Below are positions 3,740 through 14,475 of a stretch of DNA of 64,000 bases, in pieces (position 1 is the stretch's first letter; each line of letters begins with the position of its first letter). The DNA is taken from contig CBFGRM010000003.1 of NCBI GenBank assembly GCA_965651205.1, positions 16,181 through 80,180 of the forward strand, read 5' to 3'. Position numbers and translations under genes: made by a program. The notes beneath the pieces were generated by a model. That model saw nothing but the letters and a program-made list of their open reading frames with translations. It searched no databases and was not told the DNA's origin. Source of the DNA: an uncultured bacterium. Its GTDB lineage: Bacteria; Gemmatimonadota; Gemmatimonadetes; Gemmatimonadales; GWC2-71-9.

Positions 3740-5941
3740 ATGAATCGCCGCCGTTGGACCGGACTCGCCGTGGCCGGCGTGGTGTTGCTGGCGGTGGGCT
3801 GGCATTTCCGGTGGGACATCGGTCTACGCGCCATCCGGATTGTCGATCCTGTCGTTCGTCGCTGGGCGACACGAGAGGTAGATCGGCTGAGCCAGGGGGC
3901 ATACCAACTGGTTGCCTCGCCGATCCGGGTCGAGACCGATGCCCGACGGGTCTCGCTCGACACCATCCTGATAACCACTGATTCCGCAGCCAACGCGCGC
4001 CGTGAGTCGCCACTGCCGACGTTGACATTGCGCTTCCACAACTGTGCCCTGGAAGGCATCGAGCTCGATGTGCTTGCCGCTGGCGACGGCCTGCGTGCGG
4101 CGCGGGCCGGCTGCGACACTGTCGCGGTGGACGGAACGGTGCCGCAGGGCGTGTCGGGCGACAGCAGCGGTTCGTTCCTGTCGCTGCGCGAGGATCTCGA
4201 CCTGCCGCGTACGGTGCCATCCATCGAGGTCGACAGCATCGACTTCCCCGATGTCAGCGTGGCACTTGCCATCGAGGGTCGCACCGGTCACCGGACCGCT
4301 TTCGCATTCGAGCGACTGGGAGTGCGGCTGGATTCGCTGTATTATCGCCGCAACTTGCCGGAGGAGCAGGAACGCACCCTCTACTCCCGCAACGTGACCG
4401 TGCAGCTCGACGAGTTCACCGGTTCACGTGAGGCATCCGACCGGCTGGACATCGCAATGATCCGGGCCGACCTGGCCACCGGGTCTTTCGCGATGCACGG
4501 CTTCGCGTGGGCTCCCCTCCCCGGTGCGTTCAGCGACTCGCTGGGGCTGCGCGAACTGGAGGTCGACACGCTGGCACTCGAGGGCGTGGACTGGCGCGCC
4601 TTCCTGACTCGTGGCGACGCGGTGATCGGCAGCATCAAGCTGCGCGGTGCGCGGGTGGCGATGCACCAGGCCACGACCGATGAAAGTGTTGACGCCACGG
4701 ACCAGTCGACCTCCCCGACTCGTCGCTGGGTGCTGGAACGGTCTCTCCGGGCACTCGACCGCGGTGTTCACCTCGACAGTCTCGATGCCCGCGCAGTCCG
4801 GGTGATCGAGCCGGGCGCCGACAGCGGCGCGGTGATCACTGCCGACACCCTGACCGTGGCCGGCGTGCACTTCGGGTTCGACCTGGCGGCGTGGGGCGGC
4901 AACCTGCCACTGGGACCGGTGCGCCTCACGGCGAGTGGCGTGCAACGGAACTGGGAGGACTACCGCACCGCCCTGGAGACGTTCTCACTCGACCTGCCGG
5001 AAGGCGTCGCCACTGCGACCGGCGTGAGCTACGGCACTGTCGGCAGCGATGCCGATTTCAGCCGTCGCCGACGCTGGCGCACCGACCGGATCGGCGTCAC
5101 CGCCGACAGCCTGGCCATCACCGGCATCGACGACGCCGCCTGGGTGCGACGAGGTGCGTACCGGGCGGAACACATCGGCGTCAAGGGTCTCCACCTCGAC
5201 GTGTTCAGCGACAAGCGACGGCCATCGCGAGGCACACGCACGCGACACGATTATCCGCAGCAGTGGTTCCGTGCCACTCCACTGGACCTGCACGTCGACT
5301 CCGCCACGGTGACCGGCCGGATCACCTATCGCGAGCGCGGTGCCAGCAACCCGCGCACCGGCGTGCTCCGCTTCGAGGACCTCGAGGCGACGCTGGCCAA
5401 CGGCGGGATCGATCCGGGCCGGATCCGGGGCGACTCCACCATCCGCCTCAACGCCTCGGCGCGACTTATGGGTGCCGCGCCGCTGCAGGTGAGTGTTTCA
5501 CTGCCGGCATTCGCGCAACGATTCGACGCCGACTGGTCGGGGTCGCTGGGCCGGATGTCGGTGCTGCCGCTCAACGAGCTGGTCACCGGCATCTCCACGC
5601 TCCGTTTCACCAACGGAACCATCGACCGGATCGACTTCCGGGCGACCACCCGCAACGGTGTGAGCCGCGGCACCGTGCAGCCGCGCTGGCGCGACCTGTC
5701 GGTGGACCTCCCGGGAATCGCCCGGAGCGGCATCCTGCAGGGGCTGCGTCGCGCCATCGCCAAGTTCGCCGCCAATCAGTTCGTGGTCCGGATCGACAAC
5801 CACGTGGGGATGGGCGACGAGGACAATCCCAAGCAGCCGGTCAACGGCACCATCCAGCACCGCTGGGTGCCGAGCGAGACCCTGCTGCAACACCTCTGGT
5901 TCTCGCTCCGCGACGCGCTGCTGGTGACGGTCACGCTGTAG
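3740..5941 (+). CDS. AsmA/DUF748-like large periplasmic beta-rich protein with N-terminal membrane anchor
   Basis: MNRRRW + hydrophobic helix, then ~700 aa of repetitive beta-strand sequence; ATG at 3740. Confidence 0.6.
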   Translation: MNRRRWTGLAVAGVVLLAVGWHFRWDIGLRAIRIVDPVVRRWATREVDRLSQGAYQLVASPIRVETDARRVSLDTILITTDSAANARRESPLPTLTLRFHNCALEGIELDVLAAGDGLRAARAGCDTVAVDGTVPQGVSGDSSGSFLSLREDLDLPRTVPSIEVDSIDFPDVSVALAIEGRTGHRTAFAFERLGVRLDSLYYRRNLPEEQERTLYSRNVTVQLDEFTGSREASDRLDIAMIRADLATGSFAMHGFAWAPLPGAFSDSLGLRELEVDTLALEGVDWRAFLTRGDAVIGSIKLRGARVAMHQATTDESVDATDQSTSPTRRWVLERSLRALDRGVHLDSLDARAVRVIEPGADSGAVITADTLTVAGVHFGFDLAAWGGNLPLGPVRLTASGVQRNWEDYRTALETFSLDLPEGVATATGVSYGTVGSDADFSRRRRWRTDRIGVTADSLAITGIDDAAWVRRGAYRAEHIGVKGLHLDVFSDKRRPSRGTRTRHDYPQQWFRATPLDLHVDSATVTGRITYRERGASNPRTGVLRFEDLEATLANGGIDPGRIRGDSTIRLNASARLMGAAPLQVSVSLPAFAQRFDADWSGSLGRMSVLPLNELVTGISTLRFTNGTIDRIDFRATTRNGVSRGTVQPRWRDLSVDLPGIARSGILQGLRRAIAKFAANQFVVRIDNHVGMGDEDNPKQPVNGTIQHRWVPSETLLQHLWFSLRDALLVTVTL

Positions 5942-6010
5942 CCGCTCGGCGGGGGTGGCAGCCCCCCGCACCGCCACGTATACTCTCCCGTTGCAAACCC
6001 GGGGGGCACG

Positions 6011-8842
6011 TTGTCCGATCCGTCCGCAATCCTGCAGGCTGAGCTCGGGCCGCGATACGCAGTCCTTGAGGTCATCGGCAAGGGCGGGATGGCCACGGTC
6101 TACCGCGCCACCGACCGCGACCTCGGTCGCACTGTCGCCATCAAGGTGCTCTCCCCCGACCTCGCCCCACTGCTGGGCGAGCACCGCTTCCAGCGCGAGA
6201 TCGAGTTCGCAGCCAGGCTGCAACACCCGGGCATAGTTCCGCTGTACGAAGCGGGAGGCAGCGGGGCCGTGCGCTACTACACGATGCCGTTCGTGACCGG
6301 TGAGACACTGCGACAGCGACTCGACCGTTCACCCCAGCTACCGGTCGACGAGGCGGTGCACATTGCGCTCGAAGTGGCCGAAGCGCTGCGCTACGCGCAC
6401 GAACAGGGCGTAGTACATCGCGACATCAAGCCGGAGAATATCCTGCTCACCGGCGAGCGAGTGCAGGTTGCCGACTTCGGCATCGCCCACGCCATCAGCC
6501 TGGCGGGACACGACCGACTTACATCGGCAGGCGTGGCAATCGGCACGCCCTCCTATATGAGTCCGGAACAGGCGACCAGCTTCGACACCATCGACGGGCG
6601 GGCGGACATCTATTCGCTGGGCTGCCTGCTGTTCGAGATGCTGACCGGCCAGCCACCATTCACCGGTGCCACACCGCAGGTGGTGATGGCCCGTCACGTC
6701 GGGGAACCGGCACCGTCGCTCACGCTTCTCAGGCCGACGGTGCCCGCCCCGATCGGCAGCCTGGTTGCCCGGACGCTTGCAAAGTCCCCAGCCGACCGAC
6801 CCGATGCCGCACAATTCCTGGCCGACCTGCACGCTGCCCTGACTCGAGCGGACGCCAATGCTGCCCCGCGTTCAAGCCGGCGGCGCGTCGCGATCGCTGC
6901 GCTGTCGACATTGACCGCGGCAGCAGCGGGATTCGCGTTGATGGCTCGCGGCAATCCCCCAGGCGACCCCGACGCCGTGGTGGTGTTCCCGCTAACCTCG
7001 CCCGGCACCTCGTCCAGCGACGGCAAGTTGGTCGCACTCCTGATCGGCAGGGCACTGGAGCACACCGAACCGCTGCGCTGGATGGCCGGCTGGAAGGAAC
7101 TCGAGCCCGGTGTGCGCGACGACCCGGCTGCCCTCTCGATGCGGGTCGCCGAGCGCACCGCGGCGCGGATGGGAGCAAAGTGGTACATCGATGGTGACCT
7201 GGTGCCGCACGGCGACTCGCTCAGCGTGATCCTGCGCCTGCACGACATCGCCGACGGCAGCACCAGGACGGCGAGCGCCGGCTCACTGGTTGGCGACGAG
7301 ACGGTGCAGACAGCCACCACGCTTGCCCTCAAGGCGGTGATCCCGCTGCTGGAGACACTGGTCGGCCCCACTCGCCACGTTGACCTTGCGTCACTCACCA
7401 ACCGCAACCCGGCCGCGGTCGCACTCTGGCTCCGCGGCGAGCAGCAGATGCGCTCCGCCGATTTCCGCGGCGCCCTCGACAGTTACCGCAGGGCGCTTGC
7501 CCTCGACTCGACCCTGGCCGTGGCCGCACTGACCGGTGCAGGCGTGGCAATCTGGACCTACGAGGAGGCGTTCGCCGACTCGCTGGCGCACCTGGCATTG
7601 CTGCACAGCCACGGCCTGCCACCTCGCAACCTGGCCTACACCCGCGGCCTGGTGAGCTACCTCGCCGGCGACGCTGACTCTGCGGTGGCCCAGTTCACCA
7701 CTGCGTTGCGGGCAGACAGCCTTTGGTCGCACGGCTGGATGATGCTGGGTGATACCTACCACCACCTGATCACCAGCAGCAGCTCGCCCGACGAGATGTC
7801 GGAATCCGCGTTCCGCCGCAGTGTCGAGCTCGATCCCGGATTCTCCCCCGCGATCTTTCACCTGGCTGAGGCGGTGCTCCGTCGTGGCGACACCCGTGCC
7901 GGAACGGAGCTGCTCCGCCAGTTCGAGCGCGAGGCACGCGATTCGGACCTGGCCAGTCAGCTCGAGATGATGCTGACCTGTCTCGAGCGCGGGCCGGCGG
8001 CGGTCGACTGGGATTCGATGGCCGTGGCCGCGCCGCAGCGCGTGTTGATGGTGGCCGCGAACTTCGGCACTGGCGCAGCCCACCTGCCCTGCGCCCGGGC
8101 CGCCGCCAGGGCGCTCTACCAGGGCGACACCGAGCAGGTGGGGCAGGCGTCTCGTTGGGCCGCATTCAAGTGGCTGCATCACGACCTGGTCGCAGGCGGC
8201 CAGCTCGCACACGCCACGGCACTCACCGACTCCGCGGTTCGGTCTCTCACCATCGAGGCCATCGGTTTGCACATCCTCGATGCCGTGGAACTCGGCGCCG
8301 ACACCACCGCCGCACTCCGGGCAATCGACGTGATCGGGTCCTCGCTCGAGGGAATCCCGGTCAACCAGCTCTGGCACCTGGCGATCTGGGGCCTGTTCCG
8401 GCACGACCTGCCCCTTATCGACTCGATTCGCGCAGAACTGGGGAGTCGCCTCAACGATCGCGAGGCCGCCGTGCTTCGCGACCTTATCGATGCCCGACGG
8501 CTACTGCTCACAGGCGATACCACCGCCGCGATCGGTGCGCTGGCCAGTCTGCGAGCCGGCTCGGAGGACGTGCAATGGGACCTGTGGCACTCAATGGCAT
8601 CGGAACAGTTGCTGCGGGCTCGACTGTTGCTCGCCAAGGGACGGGCAGACGAGGCGTTCGAGGTGGCCTCAAGGTTCGACAACAGCCAGAGCGCCATCTA
8701 CCTGTACTACCTGCCCGCCTCGCTGGTTGTCCGGCGAGCGGCAGCGAGACAACTCGGTCGCGGCGCAACCGTCGAGTTGATGGAGGAACGGTTGCGCAAC
8801 CTGGGACGGGCCGACCTGCTGCTGACGAACACCGTCCCCTGA
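6011..8842 (+). CDS. Hanks-type Ser/Thr protein kinase with TM helix and TPR-like C-terminal region
   Basis: GKGGMATVY, VAIKVL, HRDIKPEN, DFG, GTPSYMSPEQ, DIYSLG; TM at RRRVAIAALSTLTAAAAGFALM; TPR-like helices. Confidence 0.93.
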   Translation: MSDPSAILQAELGPRYAVLEVIGKGGMATVYRATDRDLGRTVAIKVLSPDLAPLLGEHRFQREIEFAARLQHPGIVPLYEAGGSGAVRYYTMPFVTGETLRQRLDRSPQLPVDEAVHIALEVAEALRYAHEQGVVHRDIKPENILLTGERVQVADFGIAHAISLAGHDRLTSAGVAIGTPSYMSPEQATSFDTIDGRADIYSLGCLLFEMLTGQPPFTGATPQVVMARHVGEPAPSLTLLRPTVPAPIGSLVARTLAKSPADRPDAAQFLADLHAALTRADANAAPRSSRRRVAIAALSTLTAAAAGFALMARGNPPGDPDAVVVFPLTSPGTSSSDGKLVALLIGRALEHTEPLRWMAGWKELEPGVRDDPAALSMRVAERTAARMGAKWYIDGDLVPHGDSLSVILRLHDIADGSTRTASAGSLVGDETVQTATTLALKAVIPLLETLVGPTRHVDLASLTNRNPAAVALWLRGEQQMRSADFRGALDSYRRALALDSTLAVAALTGAGVAIWTYEEAFADSLAHLALLHSHGLPPRNLAYTRGLVSYLAGDADSAVAQFTTALRADSLWSHGWMMLGDTYHHLITSSSSPDEMSESAFRRSVELDPGFSPAIFHLAEAVLRRGDTRAGTELLRQFEREARDSDLASQLEMMLTCLERGPAAVDWDSMAVAAPQRVLMVAANFGTGAAHLPCARAAARALYQGDTEQVGQASRWAAFKWLHHDLVAGGQLAHATALTDSAVRSLTIEAIGLHILDAVELGADTTAALRAIDVIGSSLEGIPVNQLWHLAIWGLFRHDLPLIDSIRAELGSRLNDREAAVLRDLIDARRLLLTGDTTAAIGALASLRAGSEDVQWDLWHSMASEQLLRARLLLAKGRADEAFEVASRFDNSQSAIYLYYLPASLVVRRAAARQLGRGATVELMEERLRNLGRADLLLTNTVP

Positions 8843-8858
8843 CACCAGAGGTACCGAT

Positions 8859-9140
8859 ATGGCCAACAAGCGCAAGTCGGGCAGCACCGCCAGGCAGTCG
8901 ACCAAGGCGGCAAGGAAGAAGGCCACCACGCGGGGCGGAGCCGAGGCACTCCGCCGCCCGCTGAGTCCGGCCGGCAGGTTGAGGCGATTGGAGCTCTTCG
9001 CCGGCAGGACGTCGGAATGGATGGCCGGTATGTATGAGTGGGCGATCTTCGTGCACGAGGAACTGGTGGATCGACTGGCAGACCCACCACCCAAGCCACC
9101 GACCTGGGACAAGCCGCCCAGGCCGGGACAGGACGACTGA
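8859..9140 (+). CDS. Small hypothetical protein with basic S/T-rich N-terminus and Pro-rich C-terminus
   Basis: ATG 16 nt after kinase stop with AGAGG RBS; 93 aa. Confidence 0.65.
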   Translation: MANKRKSGSTARQSTKAARKKATTRGGAEALRRPLSPAGRLRRLELFAGRTSEWMAGMYEWAIFVHEELVDRLADPPPKPPTWDKPPRPGQDD

Positions 9141-9144
9141 GGCG

Positions 9145-9234
9145 CGAGACGTGAGACGCGAGACGTGAGACGTGAGACGTGAGACGCCAGGGATGGGACG
9201 AGTCGAATCCCGTCTCACCCCTGGCGTCTCACGT
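9145..9234. repeat. Tandem heptamer (YGAGACG)x6 continuing into a 24-bp-arm inverted repeat
   Basis: Six units 9145-9186; arms 9177-9200 and 9211-9234 (2 mismatches), 10-nt loop; between convergent small CDS and tRNA-Ile. Confidence 0.9.
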
Positions 9235-9243
9235 TCGTGGAAA

Positions 9244-9317
<74 letters not shown>

Positions 9318-9422: not shown

Positions 9423-9449
9423 TAAGATCGCCGCCCGGCGAACCGATAA
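9423..9449 (+). promoter_or_regulatory. sigma28 (FliA) promoter for motAB operon
   Basis: TAAG-N15-ACCGATAA matches TAAA-N15-GCCGATAA consensus. Confidence 0.8.
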
Positions 9450-9487
9450 CCCACGTCGGAGCGTGCATTCACCGGTGAGGAGCCGCT

Positions 9488-10357
9488 GTGGTCGCTATTG
9501 TCGGGATCATCGTTGTCGTCGTGGCCGTGCTGGGCGGATTCGCTATGGCGAACGGCCCGTTTGGCGTGCTGCTGGCCTGGTCCGAATGGGTGATCATCGT
9601 CGGCACCGGCCTCGGCACGATGCTGGTCGCCACCCCGGCCCCGGTGCTCAAGTCGATGTTTGCCCGGATCCCCAAGGTGTTCAGGCCCAGCCCATACGAC
9701 CGCTCGTTGTACCTGGACGTGTTGCGGCTGCTGTTCGAGCTGTTCCAGACCGCCCGGCGCGACGGCCTGATCGCAATCGAGTCCCACATCGAACGGCCCG
9801 AGGAAAGCGAGATCTTCAAGCGGTATCCCCGCTTCCTCGCCAACCATCACGCAGTCGAGTTCCTCAGTGACGCGCTCCGAACCGTGCTGGTGGGCAGCGT
9901 GTCGGCGTTCGACCTCGAGGCGATGCTCGAAGCGGAGATCGAGGTGCACCACGACAGCGCGGCCCTGCCCGTTACCGCACTCAACCGGGTGGCCGATTCG
10001 CTGCCGGGCATCGGCATCGTGGCCGCCGTCCTCGGCATCGTCGTGACGATGCAGAGTCTGGGCGGACCGATCGAGGAGATCGGTCACCACGTCGGCGCGG
10101 CACTGGTGGGCACCTTCCTCGGCATCCTGCTGTCCTACGGTTTCCTGGCGCCGATCGCGGCCAATATGGAGGCCCGCAACGGCGAGGAACACGGGCTCTA
10201 CTTCGCACTCAAGGCCGGCATCGTGGCGTTCGCCAAGAACCTGCCGCCGATGGTGGCGGTCGAGTTCGCGCGCAAGGCAATCAACGGTGATTCCCGGCCG
10301 ACGTTCCTGGAGATGGAAGCCGCCTGCAAGGCAACCAGGAAGGAAGCCACGGCGTGA
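9488..10357 (+). CDS. motA: Flagellar stator protein MotA
   Basis: ARRDGLIAIESHIE, LPGIGIVAAVLG, ALVGTFLGILLSYG, VEFARK. Confidence 0.96.
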   Translation: MVAIVGIIVVVVAVLGGFAMANGPFGVLLAWSEWVIIVGTGLGTMLVATPAPVLKSMFARIPKVFRPSPYDRSLYLDVLRLLFELFQTARRDGLIAIESHIERPEESEIFKRYPRFLANHHAVEFLSDALRTVLVGSVSAFDLEAMLEAEIEVHHDSAALPVTALNRVADSLPGIGIVAAVLGIVVTMQSLGGPIEEIGHHVGAALVGTFLGILLSYGFLAPIAANMEARNGEEHGLYFALKAGIVAFAKNLPPMVAVEFARKAINGDSRPTFLEMEAACKATRKEATA

Positions 10358-11175
10358 AGACCGAGCGCGAGCAGGTGATTCGCGTGGTCCGCAAGCGGCG
10401 CAAGGCGCACGGCCATCACGGCGGGGCGTGGAAGGTGGCGTTCGCCGACTTTATGACGTCGATGATGGCGCTGTTCCTGGTGCTGTGGCTGATCACCCAG
10501 AGTTCCGAGGTGCGCACCGCAATCGCCGGCTACTTCCAGGACCCGCTGGGACGCGCCAAGCAATTCGGTTCGTCGGTGGTGCCGGGCGAGGGTCAGCCCT
10601 TGCTGCCCGCCAAGCCTACGGTACAGGTGACGATGGCCGACGGCCGACGCGAGCAGTTGATCGCGCTCAGCGAGAAGCTGCGCAACGCACTGCCCGACAG
10701 CACCGACCTGGACGATCTCCGCGATCACGTCGAGATCGTGATCACCGACGACGGCCTGCGGATCTCGCTGCTGGAGGATTCCACCGACGTGTTCTTCGCC
10801 AGTGGCGACCCGCGACCGCTGCCACGCGCCGTGGTGCTGTTCGCCGCGATCGGACAGGTACTGAGCACCACCGGCTACACCGTGGTTATCGAGGGGCACA
10901 CCGACGCGATGCCGTATCGCGGTCGCGACGACTATGACAACTGGGAGCTCAGCGCTGGTCGAGCCAATTCGGTGCGCCGGGCCCTGCTCAAGGGCGGGCT
11001 GGGTGACGTGCAGGTAAGCGCGGTGCGCGGCCTGGCCGATCGCGAGCCCCGCATCGCAGCCGATCCATACGCCCCGCAGAACCGCAGGGTGACGATCCTG
11101 GTGTCGGTGCCTGATCCGCTGGCGGAGGCCGATCCCACCGTGGCAGCGTTCTCCACCGGAAAGTCCTCCACTTGA
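10354..11175 (+). CDS. motB: Flagellar stator protein MotB
   Basis: HGGAWKVAFADFMTSMMALFLVLWL TM with conserved Asp; OmpA-like EGHTD, NWELSAGRA, NRRV. Confidence 0.96.
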   Translation: MKTEREQVIRVVRKRRKAHGHHGGAWKVAFADFMTSMMALFLVLWLITQSSEVRTAIAGYFQDPLGRAKQFGSSVVPGEGQPLLPAKPTVQVTMADGRREQLIALSEKLRNALPDSTDLDDLRDHVEIVITDDGLRISLLEDSTDVFFASGDPRPLPRAVVLFAAIGQVLSTTGYTVVIEGHTDAMPYRGRDDYDNWELSAGRANSVRRALLKGGLGDVQVSAVRGLADREPRIAADPYAPQNRRVTILVSVPDPLAEADPTVAAFSTGKSST

Positions 11176-12332
11176 GTGGCCAGGCCGGGCAGCGACTGCT
11201 GCTTGTCGACGACAGCGCCCCCCGTCGAGCCGAGCTCGGCTTTACGCTGGAATCGAGTCACGGCTTCCGGGTGACTTCGTGCGCAACCGTTCGCGAGGCG
11301 CGCGACCGACTGGCCGAGTTTCCCGACTACGTGGCAGTGGTGACGCGCGCCACGCTGGGCGACCAGGACACCATTCCGTTGCTGCAGCGGGTGGCACGCG
11401 CCGGTTCCACCGGTCCCGTCGTGGTGGTGATCGCCACCGCCGCAGAGCAGGGATTGCGCCGATTGGCGTGGAGCGAGCGCGCAACCGCCGTGATCACCGA
11501 GCCGTTCGACGACACCGAGCTTGCCGCAGCACTCAGGTCGGCGCTGCTTCAGCGGCAGGCCCGCATCGACGCCATATCAGTGCAGCACGAACTGGCCAGC
11601 AGTGTCGACCACCTGCTGGACGTGCTGGTTCGGGTGCTCGACGCCGCGGTGCCGGGTTCGGCCGATCGCGCCGCCGAGCTGGTCCGACTGGTGAGCGGCA
11701 TCGGCGCGCACTTCACGATGGAATCGGTCCTCAGTGACGACCTGCTCCGAGCCGCGCGACTTGCGGAAGTGGGCCGGATCAATGCCGGCGTTGCGTCCGG
11801 TGATCGTGCCTCTCCCGGCGGCGGCTGGCCGCTGGCCTCCGCGCGCGTGGTGGCCCAGGTGCCGTTCCTGGAGAATGTCGCCACGTTGCTGGAACACGTC
11901 AGCGCCAACTGGGATGGCAGCGGCTGGCCGCAGGGCGTGCAGCGCGGCGAGATCCCGCTGCGGTCACGGATCCTGCGAGTGGCCCTCGACGCCCTGGCAC
12001 TGACATCGGGCGGTGGCGACACGCCGATGAGCCTGGCCGATGCCGCGACGCACCTGTCGACCGACAGCGGTCGGCGCTACGACCCTGCCGTGGTGGCGGC
12101 GCTCAGTGCGCTGGCTGCAGAAGGAAGGCCGTCGCTATCGGGGGAACAGACCAGCTCGGTCAGTTATGACCGCCTTGCGGAGGGAATGCAGCTCGCTGCC
12201 GACCTGCACACGATGTCGGGAGTCAAGCTGCTGTCGGCAGGCACGGTGCTCACCGGAACCACGCTGCAGTTCCTGCGACGTCGCCACGAGCTCGATCCAC
12301 TGGTGCTGCCGATACCGGTGCTGCAACGCTGA
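11172..12332 (+). CDS. Pseudo-receiver + degenerate HD-GYP domain protein, coupled to motB
   Basis: REC fold (LLLVDD...EPF) lacking phospho-Asp and Lys; HD-GYP-like AARLAEVGRI, EHVSANWDGSGWPQG...EIPLRSRIL; C-terminal LAEGMQLAADL...GVKLLSAGTVLT module; 4-nt overlap with motB. Confidence 0.8.
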   Translation: MSGQAGQRLLLVDDSAPRRAELGFTLESSHGFRVTSCATVREARDRLAEFPDYVAVVTRATLGDQDTIPLLQRVARAGSTGPVVVVIATAAEQGLRRLAWSERATAVITEPFDDTELAAALRSALLQRQARIDAISVQHELASSVDHLLDVLVRVLDAAVPGSADRAAELVRLVSGIGAHFTMESVLSDDLLRAARLAEVGRINAGVASGDRASPGGGWPLASARVVAQVPFLENVATLLEHVSANWDGSGWPQGVQRGEIPLRSRILRVALDALALTSGGGDTPMSLADAATHLSTDSGRRYDPAVVAALSALAAEGRPSLSGEQTSSVSYDRLAEGMQLAADLHTMSGVKLLSAGTVLTGTTLQFLRRRHELDPLVLPIPVLQR

Positions 12333-12338
12333 CACGAC

Positions 12339-12593
12339 TCAGTCGTCGGCGGCCCCGGGCCGGGGACGTGCCAGGGCCGGAATGAGCCCGTCGGGCAGGG
12401 CGACATCCGCGGTCACCGCCGCGCGACGGTTTTCCTCGGCCACCTGCTGCAGCAGTTCCTCGCGCAGCACCGACCGCTCGCGCGGCGCTTCGATGCCGAG
12501 CCTTACGCCCCGATGATCGCTTGAGAGCACCACGACGCGCACGTCACCGTCGATGACGATCGCCTCACCTTCCCTGCGCGTCAGGACCAGCAT
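12339..12593 (-). CDS. csrA: Carbon storage regulator CsrA (FliW-binding type with C-terminal extension)
   Basis: MLVLTRREGEAIVI...VRLGIEAPR...REEL...EENRRAA. Confidence 0.95.
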   Translation of the reverse strand: MLVLTRREGEAIVIDGDVRVVVLSSDHRGVRLGIEAPRERSVLREELLQQVAEENRRAAVTADVALPDGLIPALARPRPGAADD

Positions 12594-13965: not shown

Positions 13966-14475
13966 TCAGGCGCTCCGGTTGACGAGCGTGCCCCCGGGCA
14001 TCGCTGGTTGCGCCTTGCGGCGCTGCGGATCGCCGTACGATGTGGACTGCGGCACCACCGAACTGAACAGCGCCTGCAGGTAGGCATTGCCGGCGTGCAT
14101 CGCGCCCTGAAGCACTTCCTGTGTCAGCGCCAGGTCACGGATCGTCGCCTCGGCTTCGCGACGCAGCGCGGCGCGCGATTCCTTGAGACCCTCGACCGGA
14201 CCGAGCTCCTGTTCGAGAGTGTCGAGTCGCACCGGCCGGCCGCCCGACGCCAGCCGCAGCAGGTCCTCCCGGCGGCGCCTGGCAGCGTCGAGAGTCAGCA
14301 CCGTGCTGGCCACCGCGCGCGATGCCAGTTCGATCGCCTCGGGGTCGCTGCTCGCCACTCCATCGCGTTGCTGCCCCAGCGCCAGCCGCAGTTGTCGGAG
14401 CAGTTGCTGCTCGCCGCGCGTGGACGCCACGATTTGTTGCGCGGCGTCGCGGGCTGATTCAGCGATCGGATCCAT
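13966..14475 (-). CDS. flgN: Flagellar export chaperone FlgN-like
   Basis: Helical 169 aa between flgJ and flgK; C-terminal SYG...TLVNRSA tail typical of FlgN. Confidence 0.7.
   Translation of the reverse strand: MDPIAESARDAAQQIVASTRGEQQLLRQLRLALGQQRDGVASSDPEAIELASRAVASTVLTLDAARRRREDLLRLASGGRPVRLDTLEQELGPVEGLKESRAALRREAEATIRDLALTQEVLQGAMHAGNAYLQALFSSVVPQSTSYGDPQRRKAQPAMPGGTLVNRSA

Follow-up and report, generated by a model that had tools for sequence, protein, structure and literature searches.

A degenerate receiver/HD-GYP-like protein encoded directly behind motB in Gemmatimonadota and Candidatus Eisenbacteria, a likely new kind of flagellar motor accessory

Why should an operon for the two subunits of a flagellar stator carry, as its third gene, a signaling protein that has lost its catalytic residues? 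The question is raised by a 64,000-nucleotide stretch of an uncultured Gemmatimonadota genome (assembly GCA_965651205.1, contig CBFGRM010000003.1, positions 16,181 to 80,180; hereafter the window), in which motA and motB are followed by orf386, the gene of a protein that we call X. An earlier note, made from the letters of this DNA, had described a motA-motB-orf386 array joined by 4-nt overlaps, and the open reading frame (ORF) coordinates bear this out: the overlaps are GTGA between motA and motB and TTGA between motB and X, all on the plus strand. Judged by its sequence and by the company that its gene keeps, X is likely a new kind of flagellar motor accessory.

How constant is the association with the stator genes? 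A sequence search returned about 45 relatives of similar length to X, while among 1.84 billion representatives a profile of its C-terminal module matched 176 clusters (E ≤ 1e-10); the best 150 of these 176 are, with few exceptions, proteins of 375 to 414 aa that carry the module at the C end. A scan of species-representative genomes gave 73 X loci, whose record titles name Gemmatimonadota (49 loci), Candidatus Eisenbacteria (17) and 'Burkholderiaceae' (1), with 6 unclassified. Linkage of the orthologues to motAB had been set beforehand as a test by which the proposal could be refuted, and motB was found directly 5' of X in 69 of the 73 loci, which is 69/69 of the informative ones, since the other four have less than 350 bp upstream. 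The 'Burkholderiaceae' contig, from a metagenome-assembled genome (MAG), encodes an X identical to that of a Candidatus Eisenbacteria MAG with the same isolate-name prefix (L083 versus L084), and its label is probably a binning error.

Within the window's own genus, MotB was found in exactly those 10 of 24 genomes drawn that have X, the other 14 having neither; the order motA-motB-X was seen in 10/10 loci, and convergent csrA-flgK in the 9 with a contig long enough. A wider draw took 301 genomes of the phylum, counting as orthologues only proteins that match the profile at E ≤ 1e-85 and reach the C-terminal module; four unpublished genomes (G207, G127, G183 and G089) enter this draw solely as non-carriers in the denominators. 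True X orthologues were present in 24 genomes, all from the window's family, and abutted motB in 24/24 when the coordinates were compared by eye. Ordinary receiver-HD-GYP paralogues match the same profile at about 1e-40 and end before the C-terminal module. In the window's family, 25 genomes encode this type of MotB (at least 49% identity), and 24 of the 25 have a full X. X is locked to one MotAB lineage. A 682-aa metagenomic protein with MotB_plug, OmpA and HD_5 matches (P0267) was considered as a MotB-X fusion, or Rosetta stone, and rejected: its junction is Arg/Gly rich and out of frame, the C-terminal motif of MotB is lost, and we read it as a probable frameshift in assembly that lends no support to such a fusion.

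The sigma28 promoter that had been placed before motA also stood up to comparison. In a survey of the 260 nt 5' of motA in 60 related loci and the window (n = 61), CCGATA(A/C) was accompanied 15 to 16 nt earlier by (C)TCAAG, TAAT or TAAG in 57/61 loci, and the promoter-type site lies 16 to 77 nt before the motA start codon in 54 loci; the CCGATA hexamer is estimated to arise by chance at about 0.04 per locus in 260 nt. Given a conserved two-box site above the chance rate, and what we take to be the FliA/sigma28 consensus, motA-motB-X is predicted to be a FliA-type late flagellar operon. The short overlaps and the conserved promoter would both be signals of co-expression.

Is X then an enzyme? 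Its HD-GYP-like domain is readily recognized: HD_5 (PF13487) matches residues 151 to 307 at E 2e-19, Foldseek matches X to 4r8z (E 2e-6, TMt 0.64), and the best sequence match in the PDB is V-cGAP3 (5z7c, E 2.4e-6), to both of whose HD-GYP domains, the active and the degenerate, X can be aligned. To map the ligands, X was aligned to canonical receiver-HD-GYP paralogues from related genomes in the numbering of PmGH, whose metal ligands are given in passages of PMC4159591 as H189, H221, D222, H250, H276, H277 and D305. The corresponding residues of the window protein are, in that order, R166, A198, E199, W219, V243, S244 and L272. Across the family the first position is an invariant Arg, the second is His in most members and the third is Glu throughout, while the last four ligands are lost. 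The earlier note had thus been right about the loss of metal ligands, of which the window protein keeps 0/7, although its 'HHE to HVS' was one residue out of register (VSA by alignment), an error that leaves the conclusion unchanged. The change of GYP to GWP (G251-W252-P253) and the missing RxYK motif, whose R and K residues are absent, were likewise read correctly. The middle residue of this tripeptide may be W, F, Y, V, Q, M, L, I, S, T, A or H across the family; among the substrate contacts of PmGH, R314 and K317 have no counterpart in X and Y285 is variable.

In place of the canonical residues, the family has invariant residues of its own (R166, W247, G249, G251, I261, P262, R264, R266, Y303 and D304), several of them in two invariant stretches, the loop N246-W247-D248-G249-x-G251-x-P253 and the segment G259-Q-I-P-L-R264-S-R266-x-L-R269. 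By every sequence criterion tested, X is predicted to be non-catalytic, as had been proposed, and the catalytic residues are lost family-wide and not in the window protein alone. As a side observation, four paralogues (L014, L016, L018 and L023) look like catalytically intact receiver-HD-GYP proteins, yet read G-L-P for G-Y-P; therefore, the Tyr is not universal even among likely enzymes.

The N-terminal domain has degenerated in a different way. An AlphaFold2 (AF2) model of X, built from a 31-sequence alignment (predicted local distance difference test [pLDDT] 90.1, predicted template modeling score 0.76), comprises a CheY-like part (residues 8 to 125), a long helix (114 to 159), an HD-type helical part (about 163 to 318) and a beta/alpha module (326 to 385). 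The strands and helices of the receiver region are modeled at pLDDT >90, and Foldseek returns receiver matches at TMt 0.8 to 0.9, although the Response_reg (PF00072) score of 28 bits falls slightly below the cutoff of 30.2. As the earlier note had seen, the acidic pair after beta1 is kept, VVTRAT stands where the phospho-Asp should be at the end of beta3, and EPF replaces KPF after beta5; the residues concerned are R59 and E110, and the Thr/Ser column after beta4 holds A88. Elsewhere in the family, Asp is found at the phospho-acceptor column in 29/73 members and Lys at the beta5 column in 25/73. The pseudo-receiver clade shows strong conservation of LRRLAW..G..AVLT.P.D..EL.AAL, which spans alpha4-beta5-alpha5. 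When the family receiver (X residues 5 to 140, as a profile) was compared with the PDB, the best scores, at E about 6e-40, went to both receivers of PleD, the second of which is itself non-phosphorylated.

The members that keep the phospho-acceptor have a kinase at hand. In many loci an ORF of 230 to 266 aa with HisKA and HATPase_c domains, and without a sensor domain, lies directly 3' of X on the same strand (for example, L045 at about 7270-7975 and L109:1385-2089(-)). Among the 66 loci with at least 900 bp downstream, which are informative on this point, the kinase follows X in 39; it is absent from the window. Where D59 and K110 are intact, the kinase lies within 700 bp downstream in 20/22 loci, and in the other two it follows an extra receiver gene. 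Loci with a degenerate receiver keep the kinase in 19/44 cases and lack it in 25/44, the window included, and neither kinase nor phospho-site is found in the window and its six nearest relatives. New here are the early-branching members of the X family, in which the receiver is intact and the gene of a small histidine kinase without a sensor follows closely downstream.

From 72 X sequences we built a quick maximum-likelihood tree, with six canonical paralogues as the root; two atypical paralogues were omitted, as was L104, whose sequence has a masked run. Lineages with both intact receiver and kinase branch first, a clade of 43 rows (Shimodaira-Hasegawa-like approximate likelihood ratio test support of 99) consists entirely of degenerate receivers, and the window falls in a clade of 7 rows (support of 100) that has neither kinase nor phospho-site. 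At minimum, 4 changes of receiver state and 6 of the kinase are needed on this tree. The sequences indicate that X derives from a stator-operon two-component system (motA-motB-X-histidine kinase), and the provisional order of events would be an intact receiver with kinase, then a pseudo-receiver, then loss of the kinase. X had been suggested to be phosphorylation-independent; this appears to hold only in the window's derived clade and not in the early-branching members, which keep both D and K and are directly followed by the gene of a histidine kinase.

Degeneration of this kind might be mistaken for decay, but the substitution pattern argues otherwise. X is a full-length open frame in 73/77 non-redundant loci, and identity to the window protein ranges from 26 to 58% over the aligned set. 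Among the remaining four loci, a contig end truncates three, and one (L072) reads 273 aa. By the Nei-Gojobori method (NG86), the ratio of nonsynonymous to synonymous rates (dN/dS) of the whole gene is 0.04 to 0.27 in the 40 closest pairs, so that the neutral, pseudogene-like evolution that would have spoken against the proposal was not seen. The degenerate receivers give 0.02 to 0.20, and one pair from the window's kinase-less clade (L035/L036) gives 0.19 for the receiver, 0.05 for the HD-like domain and 0.19 for the C-terminal module. In the 72 X sequences, 32 columns are at least 95% conserved, all of them within the HD-like and C-terminal parts. These values indicate purifying selection on X in all three domains.

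The C-terminal module had been noticed in the earlier note and proves real. Its motif is LxxGMxLAxDLxTxSGxKLL, and no other part of the family is as well conserved, with a mean pairwise identity (72 sequences) of 0.49, compared with 0.43 for the HD-like domain and 0.28 for the receiver. A separate AF2 model of residues 320 to 386 reaches pLDDT 91.6. Aligned with VIA-align, this model matches MoeA (1uz5; Z 7.0, root mean square deviation 2.4, 61 aligned residues), the C terminus of the Orn/Lys/Arg decarboxylase 2x3l (Z 6.8), gephyrin E (Z 6.1), inserts of the RNA polymerase (RNAP) beta' and beta subunits (Z 5.5 to 6.0) and, weakly, P0/uL10 (Z 2.1 to 2.4); the family profile also gives a weak match to a stretch of RNAP beta' (E 0.0096). 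The BEAN domain (CATH 3.90.105.10) consists of two antiparallel bracket-like elements, each made up of one alpha helix plus a pair of beta strands, and its members, as named in passages of PMC11515920, are RNAP beta/beta' inserts, MoeA, the Orn/Lys/Arg decarboxylase C terminus and archaeal uL10. Because the structural matches coincide with this member list, we name the module BEAN-like, a model-based label, given that Z values below 8 may reflect merely a common arrangement. Pfam assigned no family to the module alone (noise at E 0.06 to 0.08), Foldseek gave no match of its model in the PDB at E ≤ 0.001, and residues 320 to 386 met only small unnamed clusters in the ESM Atlas, with no named match.

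The one genome of the window's family that has this MotB type without a full X (G156) bears on the module. There, a 116-aa ORF (L108:4839-5189) starts 1 nt after motB. Of X it retains just the BEAN-like module and the final helices of the HD-like domain, and behind it come a free-standing CheY-like gene (5419-5802) and then a kinase gene (5943-6743). This arrangement may be a natural 'split' form of X, pointing to the BEAN-like module as the stator-proximal part. Short forms of about 116 aa also occur among the profile matches; those other than G156 may be artifacts of gene calling or contig ends.

What, then, might X do? We favor, at a probability of about one half, the reading that X is a non-catalytic, stator-linked regulator or adaptor of the motor that acts by contact, with gene context pointing to MotA. 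X would be a non-enzymatic accessory of one lineage of H+-type MotAB stators, and its ancestor a response regulator encoded within the stator operon, together with a small histidine kinase that has no sensor domain. Its output, the remodeled HD-GYP domain with the BEAN-like module, would act by protein-protein contact, most likely with the cytoplasmic face of MotA5B2 or the MotA-FliG interface, and so might adjust torque or the engagement of the stator. Phosphorylation would switch this output in early-branching members, whereas in the window's clade, where kinase and phospho-acceptor are gone, X would be constitutive or gated otherwise, for example by a ligand in the former active-site pocket or by a partner protein. 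That X targets the motor, that it does so by contact, and which way its effect runs are what we infer. A more far-reaching version, which we hold only tentatively, is that the stator-operon two-component system (MotA-MotB-response regulator-histidine kinase) forms a second, CheY-independent line of motor control, in which the BEAN-like module would serve as a new type of domain for docking to the stator. The gutted HD-GYP domain would then be a switch that phosphorylation gates in early-branching members and that is either hard-wired or gated by a ligand in the window's clade; or the line might run outward, as a sensor of load or surface. The earlier suggestion that X replaces CheY control, on the other hand, did not survive. 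The window's genome, which is 95.5% complete, encodes a CheA-size ORF with a CheW domain as well as a CheW, and FliM is encoded in the window; therefore, chemotactic switching is not replaced.

Several observations weigh against the reading of X as a stator-linked regulator. Gene neighborhood alone is a weak predictor of binding, and related genomes are not independent, so the counts given above overstate the support. In the 301-genome draw, 39 flagellated genomes of other families lack X and have a different MotB (35 to 42% identity), so that rotation as such does not require X; three of these X-free flagellated genomes were inspected and have the order flgK-motA-motB. X also evolves much faster than its neighbors, with a mean column identity of 51%, where MotA of the same 39 loci reaches 73%, and the order of losses is provisional because the tree was rooted on paralogues and contains many long branches. 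Comparison of MotA between X-carrying and X-free lineages, which shows 21 point differences and no insert, is uninformative.

Two other readings also leave X a signaling role. The HD-GYP pocket might bind a nucleotide (cyclic di-GMP [c-di-GMP], pGpG, cGAMP or other) without hydrolyzing it, making X a ligand-gated brake or clutch that would fill the role of the PilZ proteins YcgR, MotI and MotL. The pocket has been replaced and not randomized, since R166 is invariant, E199 and R/K202 are kept, and NWDG(S/T)GxP and IPLRSR.LR are invariant; turnover of c-di-GMP is present in the window's genome, where GGDEF gives 5 matches and HD_5 another 6 besides X; and inactive HD-GYP and EAL domains that act via binding are described in part of PMC4159591. 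PilZ (PF07238), a domain marked by RxxxR and D/NxSxxG, had no match in the window's genome, nor in X itself at E ≤ 0.1; it was found in 0/24 same-genus genomes and in only 2/41 relatives overall, irrespective of flagella, and such rarity across the whole order, with or without flagella, means that its absence says little. Because the PmGH contacts Y285, R314 and K317 are not kept, a canonical-mode c-di-GMP receptor is weakened, and we regard this reading as unlikely. It is still less probable that the operon kinase and X report the state of the stator (load, ion flux or surface contact) elsewhere, for example by docking a GGDEF cyclase via the GYP-like loop as RpfG does. The kinase, having HisKA and HATPase domains only and no sensor domain, must take its input from a partner protein, no stretch of the HD-like domain of X is more invariant than the GYP-like loop, and the RpfG loop mediates HD-GYP::GGDEF contacts independent of catalysis, according to a section of PMC4159591. 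Against such a relay, the window's clade has lost kinase and phospho-site while X is still selected, which means that relaying phosphate cannot be its core function in that clade; no linked cyclase gene was seen in the flanks examined, which were scanned for MotA, MotB, CsrA, FlgK, histidine kinase and receiver genes only.

Three further explanations remain. That X is a general signaling protein, regulating gene expression or another late-motility process and merely co-expressed with late flagellar genes, would fit its place in a FliA-type operon, its convergence with csrA, and the broad regulatory effects that part of PMC3411652 ascribes to PA2572, itself a receiver with a degenerate HD-GYP domain. 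It is improbable, given that the position after motB is kept in 69/69 informative loci and two phyla while the rest varies (kinase, extra receiver gene, csrA) and that genomes lacking this MotB type lack X as well. A residual enzyme with an unconventional active site could draw on the His that most family members keep at the HD position, the Glu in place of Asp, and the conserved D273 one residue off the canonical Asp; yet at most 1 or 2 of 7 or 8 ligands survive in the family and none is unchanged in the window protein, and single Ala changes of most PmGH ligands abolish activity (PMC4159591, in the portion available), which makes this very remote. Hardly credible, finally, is a decaying pseudogene without function: both signaling domains lack their hallmark residues, but the intact frames, the low dN/dS values and the 32 near-invariant columns described above contradict it.

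How does X, as the stator-linked regulator that we favor, compare with known systems? The flagellar motor is controlled after assembly by CheY at the switch, by PilZ-type brakes, by the EpsE clutch and, as recently recognized, by FapA and FlgX at the stator base. FlgX of Campylobacter is reportedly a cytoplasmic accessory at that base which controls stator engagement or stability. FapA of Borrelia, also a cytoplasmic accessory, binds the base of MotA5B2 and controls engagement or stability (bioRxiv 10.64898/2026.10.14.759253, in the part seen). Both provide a precedent as binders of the cytoplasmic stator base, while MotA binding by X is something we only infer; their folds, ferredoxin-like plus beta-solenoid in FapA and tetrameric PilZ in FlgX, are unrelated to X.

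By architecture the nearest relative is PA2572 of Pseudomonas aeruginosa, like X of response-regulator type with a degenerate HD-GYP ('YN-GYP') domain, for which c-di-GMP hydrolysis is undetectable and whose mutants are reduced in swimming and swarming (PMC3411652, in excerpt). Unlike X, PA2572 has a working receiver and an orphan chemoreceptor-like sensor as partner, and neither a C-terminal module nor a motAB neighborhood is described for it in the same excerpt of PMC3411652. The losses have also gone further in X, with no canonical ligand left in the window protein. MotL of Shewanella putrefaciens resembles X in that its gene lies directly downstream of motB, and it tunes motor output (PMC8203827, in part), but it is a single PilZ domain that binds c-di-GMP, whereas X has no PilZ and an unrelated architecture. 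Bd1817 of Bdellovibrio and the N-terminal pseudo-HD-GYP domain of V-cGAP3 (5z7c) share with X a catalytically inactive HD-GYP fold; unlike X, which has lost the ligands, Bd1817 still binds a di-iron center through conserved ones, as passages of PMC4159591 state. For the BEAN domain, neither a fusion to HD-GYP nor a flagellar context is reported in the available sections of PMC11515920. X may thus be placed nearest to the PA2572-like degenerate HD-GYP regulators in architecture, to MotL in genomic logic and to FapA in its proposed action, as a member of none of these groups. No description of an HD-GYP-type gene in a motAB operon, or of the X family, was found in the full-text literature, most subscription journals being outside the scope of that search, nor does the portion seen of a paper on MotAB evolution (PMC12505986) describe the X gene.

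If the favored reading is right, X represents a different solution to motor control, a response regulator with a pseudo-enzyme output that is fixed beside the stator genes and has its own kinase in early-branching forms; and the BEAN-type module, so far known from insertions in RNA polymerase and in certain enzymes, would gain a candidate signaling role. X is known from two poorly studied phyla, Gemmatimonadota and Candidatus Eisenbacteria. The family offers a natural series, from live receiver with kinase through pseudo-receiver with kinase to pseudo-receiver alone, that could be used to study how a phospho-switch becomes hard-wired. Even if X makes no motor contact, it would define a new, well-delimited family of degenerate HD-GYP proteins.

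Table 1. Features of the motA-motB-X locus (coordinates in the window)
Feature	Coordinates	Strand	Remarks
tRNA-Ile(GAT)	9244..9317	-	Upstream boundary of the operon
Predicted sigma28 (FliA)-type promoter, TAAG-N15-ACCGATAA	9423..9449	+	Sequence read and CCGATAA match; 38 nt before the motA start
motA, 289 aa, GTG start	9488..10357	+	MotA_N and MotA_ExbB; TIGR03818 MotA1 355 bits (cutoff 303.8)
motB, 273 aa	10354..11175	+	MotB_plug and OmpA; 4-nt overlap with motA
X (orf386), 386 aa, TTG start	11172..12332	+	Start overlaps the motB stop by 4 nt; HD_5 and receiver-like
X residues 8-125, pseudo-receiver	11193..11546	+	D13 and D14 kept; R59, A88, E110
X residues 151-318, HD-GYP-like domain	11622..12125	+	0/7 canonical metal ligands; own family-invariant residues
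X residues 326-386, BEAN-like beta/alpha module	12147..12329	+	About 60 aa; most conserved domain of X
csrA	12339..12593	-	Convergent with X, 6 nt from the X stop; end of the operon; no kinase gene here

Beyond csrA lie flgK and then a long flagellar cluster with a flgJ-like gene, flgI, flgA, flgG, flgF, a flhG-like gene, flhF, flhA, flhB, fliR, fliOP, fliM, flgE and fliI. On the other side of the operon, a repeat region at 9141-9235, between a small ORF (8859-9140) and the tRNA-Ile gene, consists of short repeats of the GAGACGT/GAGACGC type followed by a long inverted repeat, GAGACGCCAGGG ... CCCTGGCGTCTC, and resembles a strong hairpin. Further upstream, positions 6011-8842 (+) hold a 943-aa ORF with a long C-terminal part that looks like helical repeats; its N terminus contains HRDIKPENILL, which we take to be a Ser/Thr protein kinase motif. 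A 169-aa ORF at 13966-14475 (-), for which Pfam gave no match at E ≤ 1e-5, lies between flgK and the flgJ-like gene, a slot that is presumably typical for a flagellar chaperone such as FlgN.

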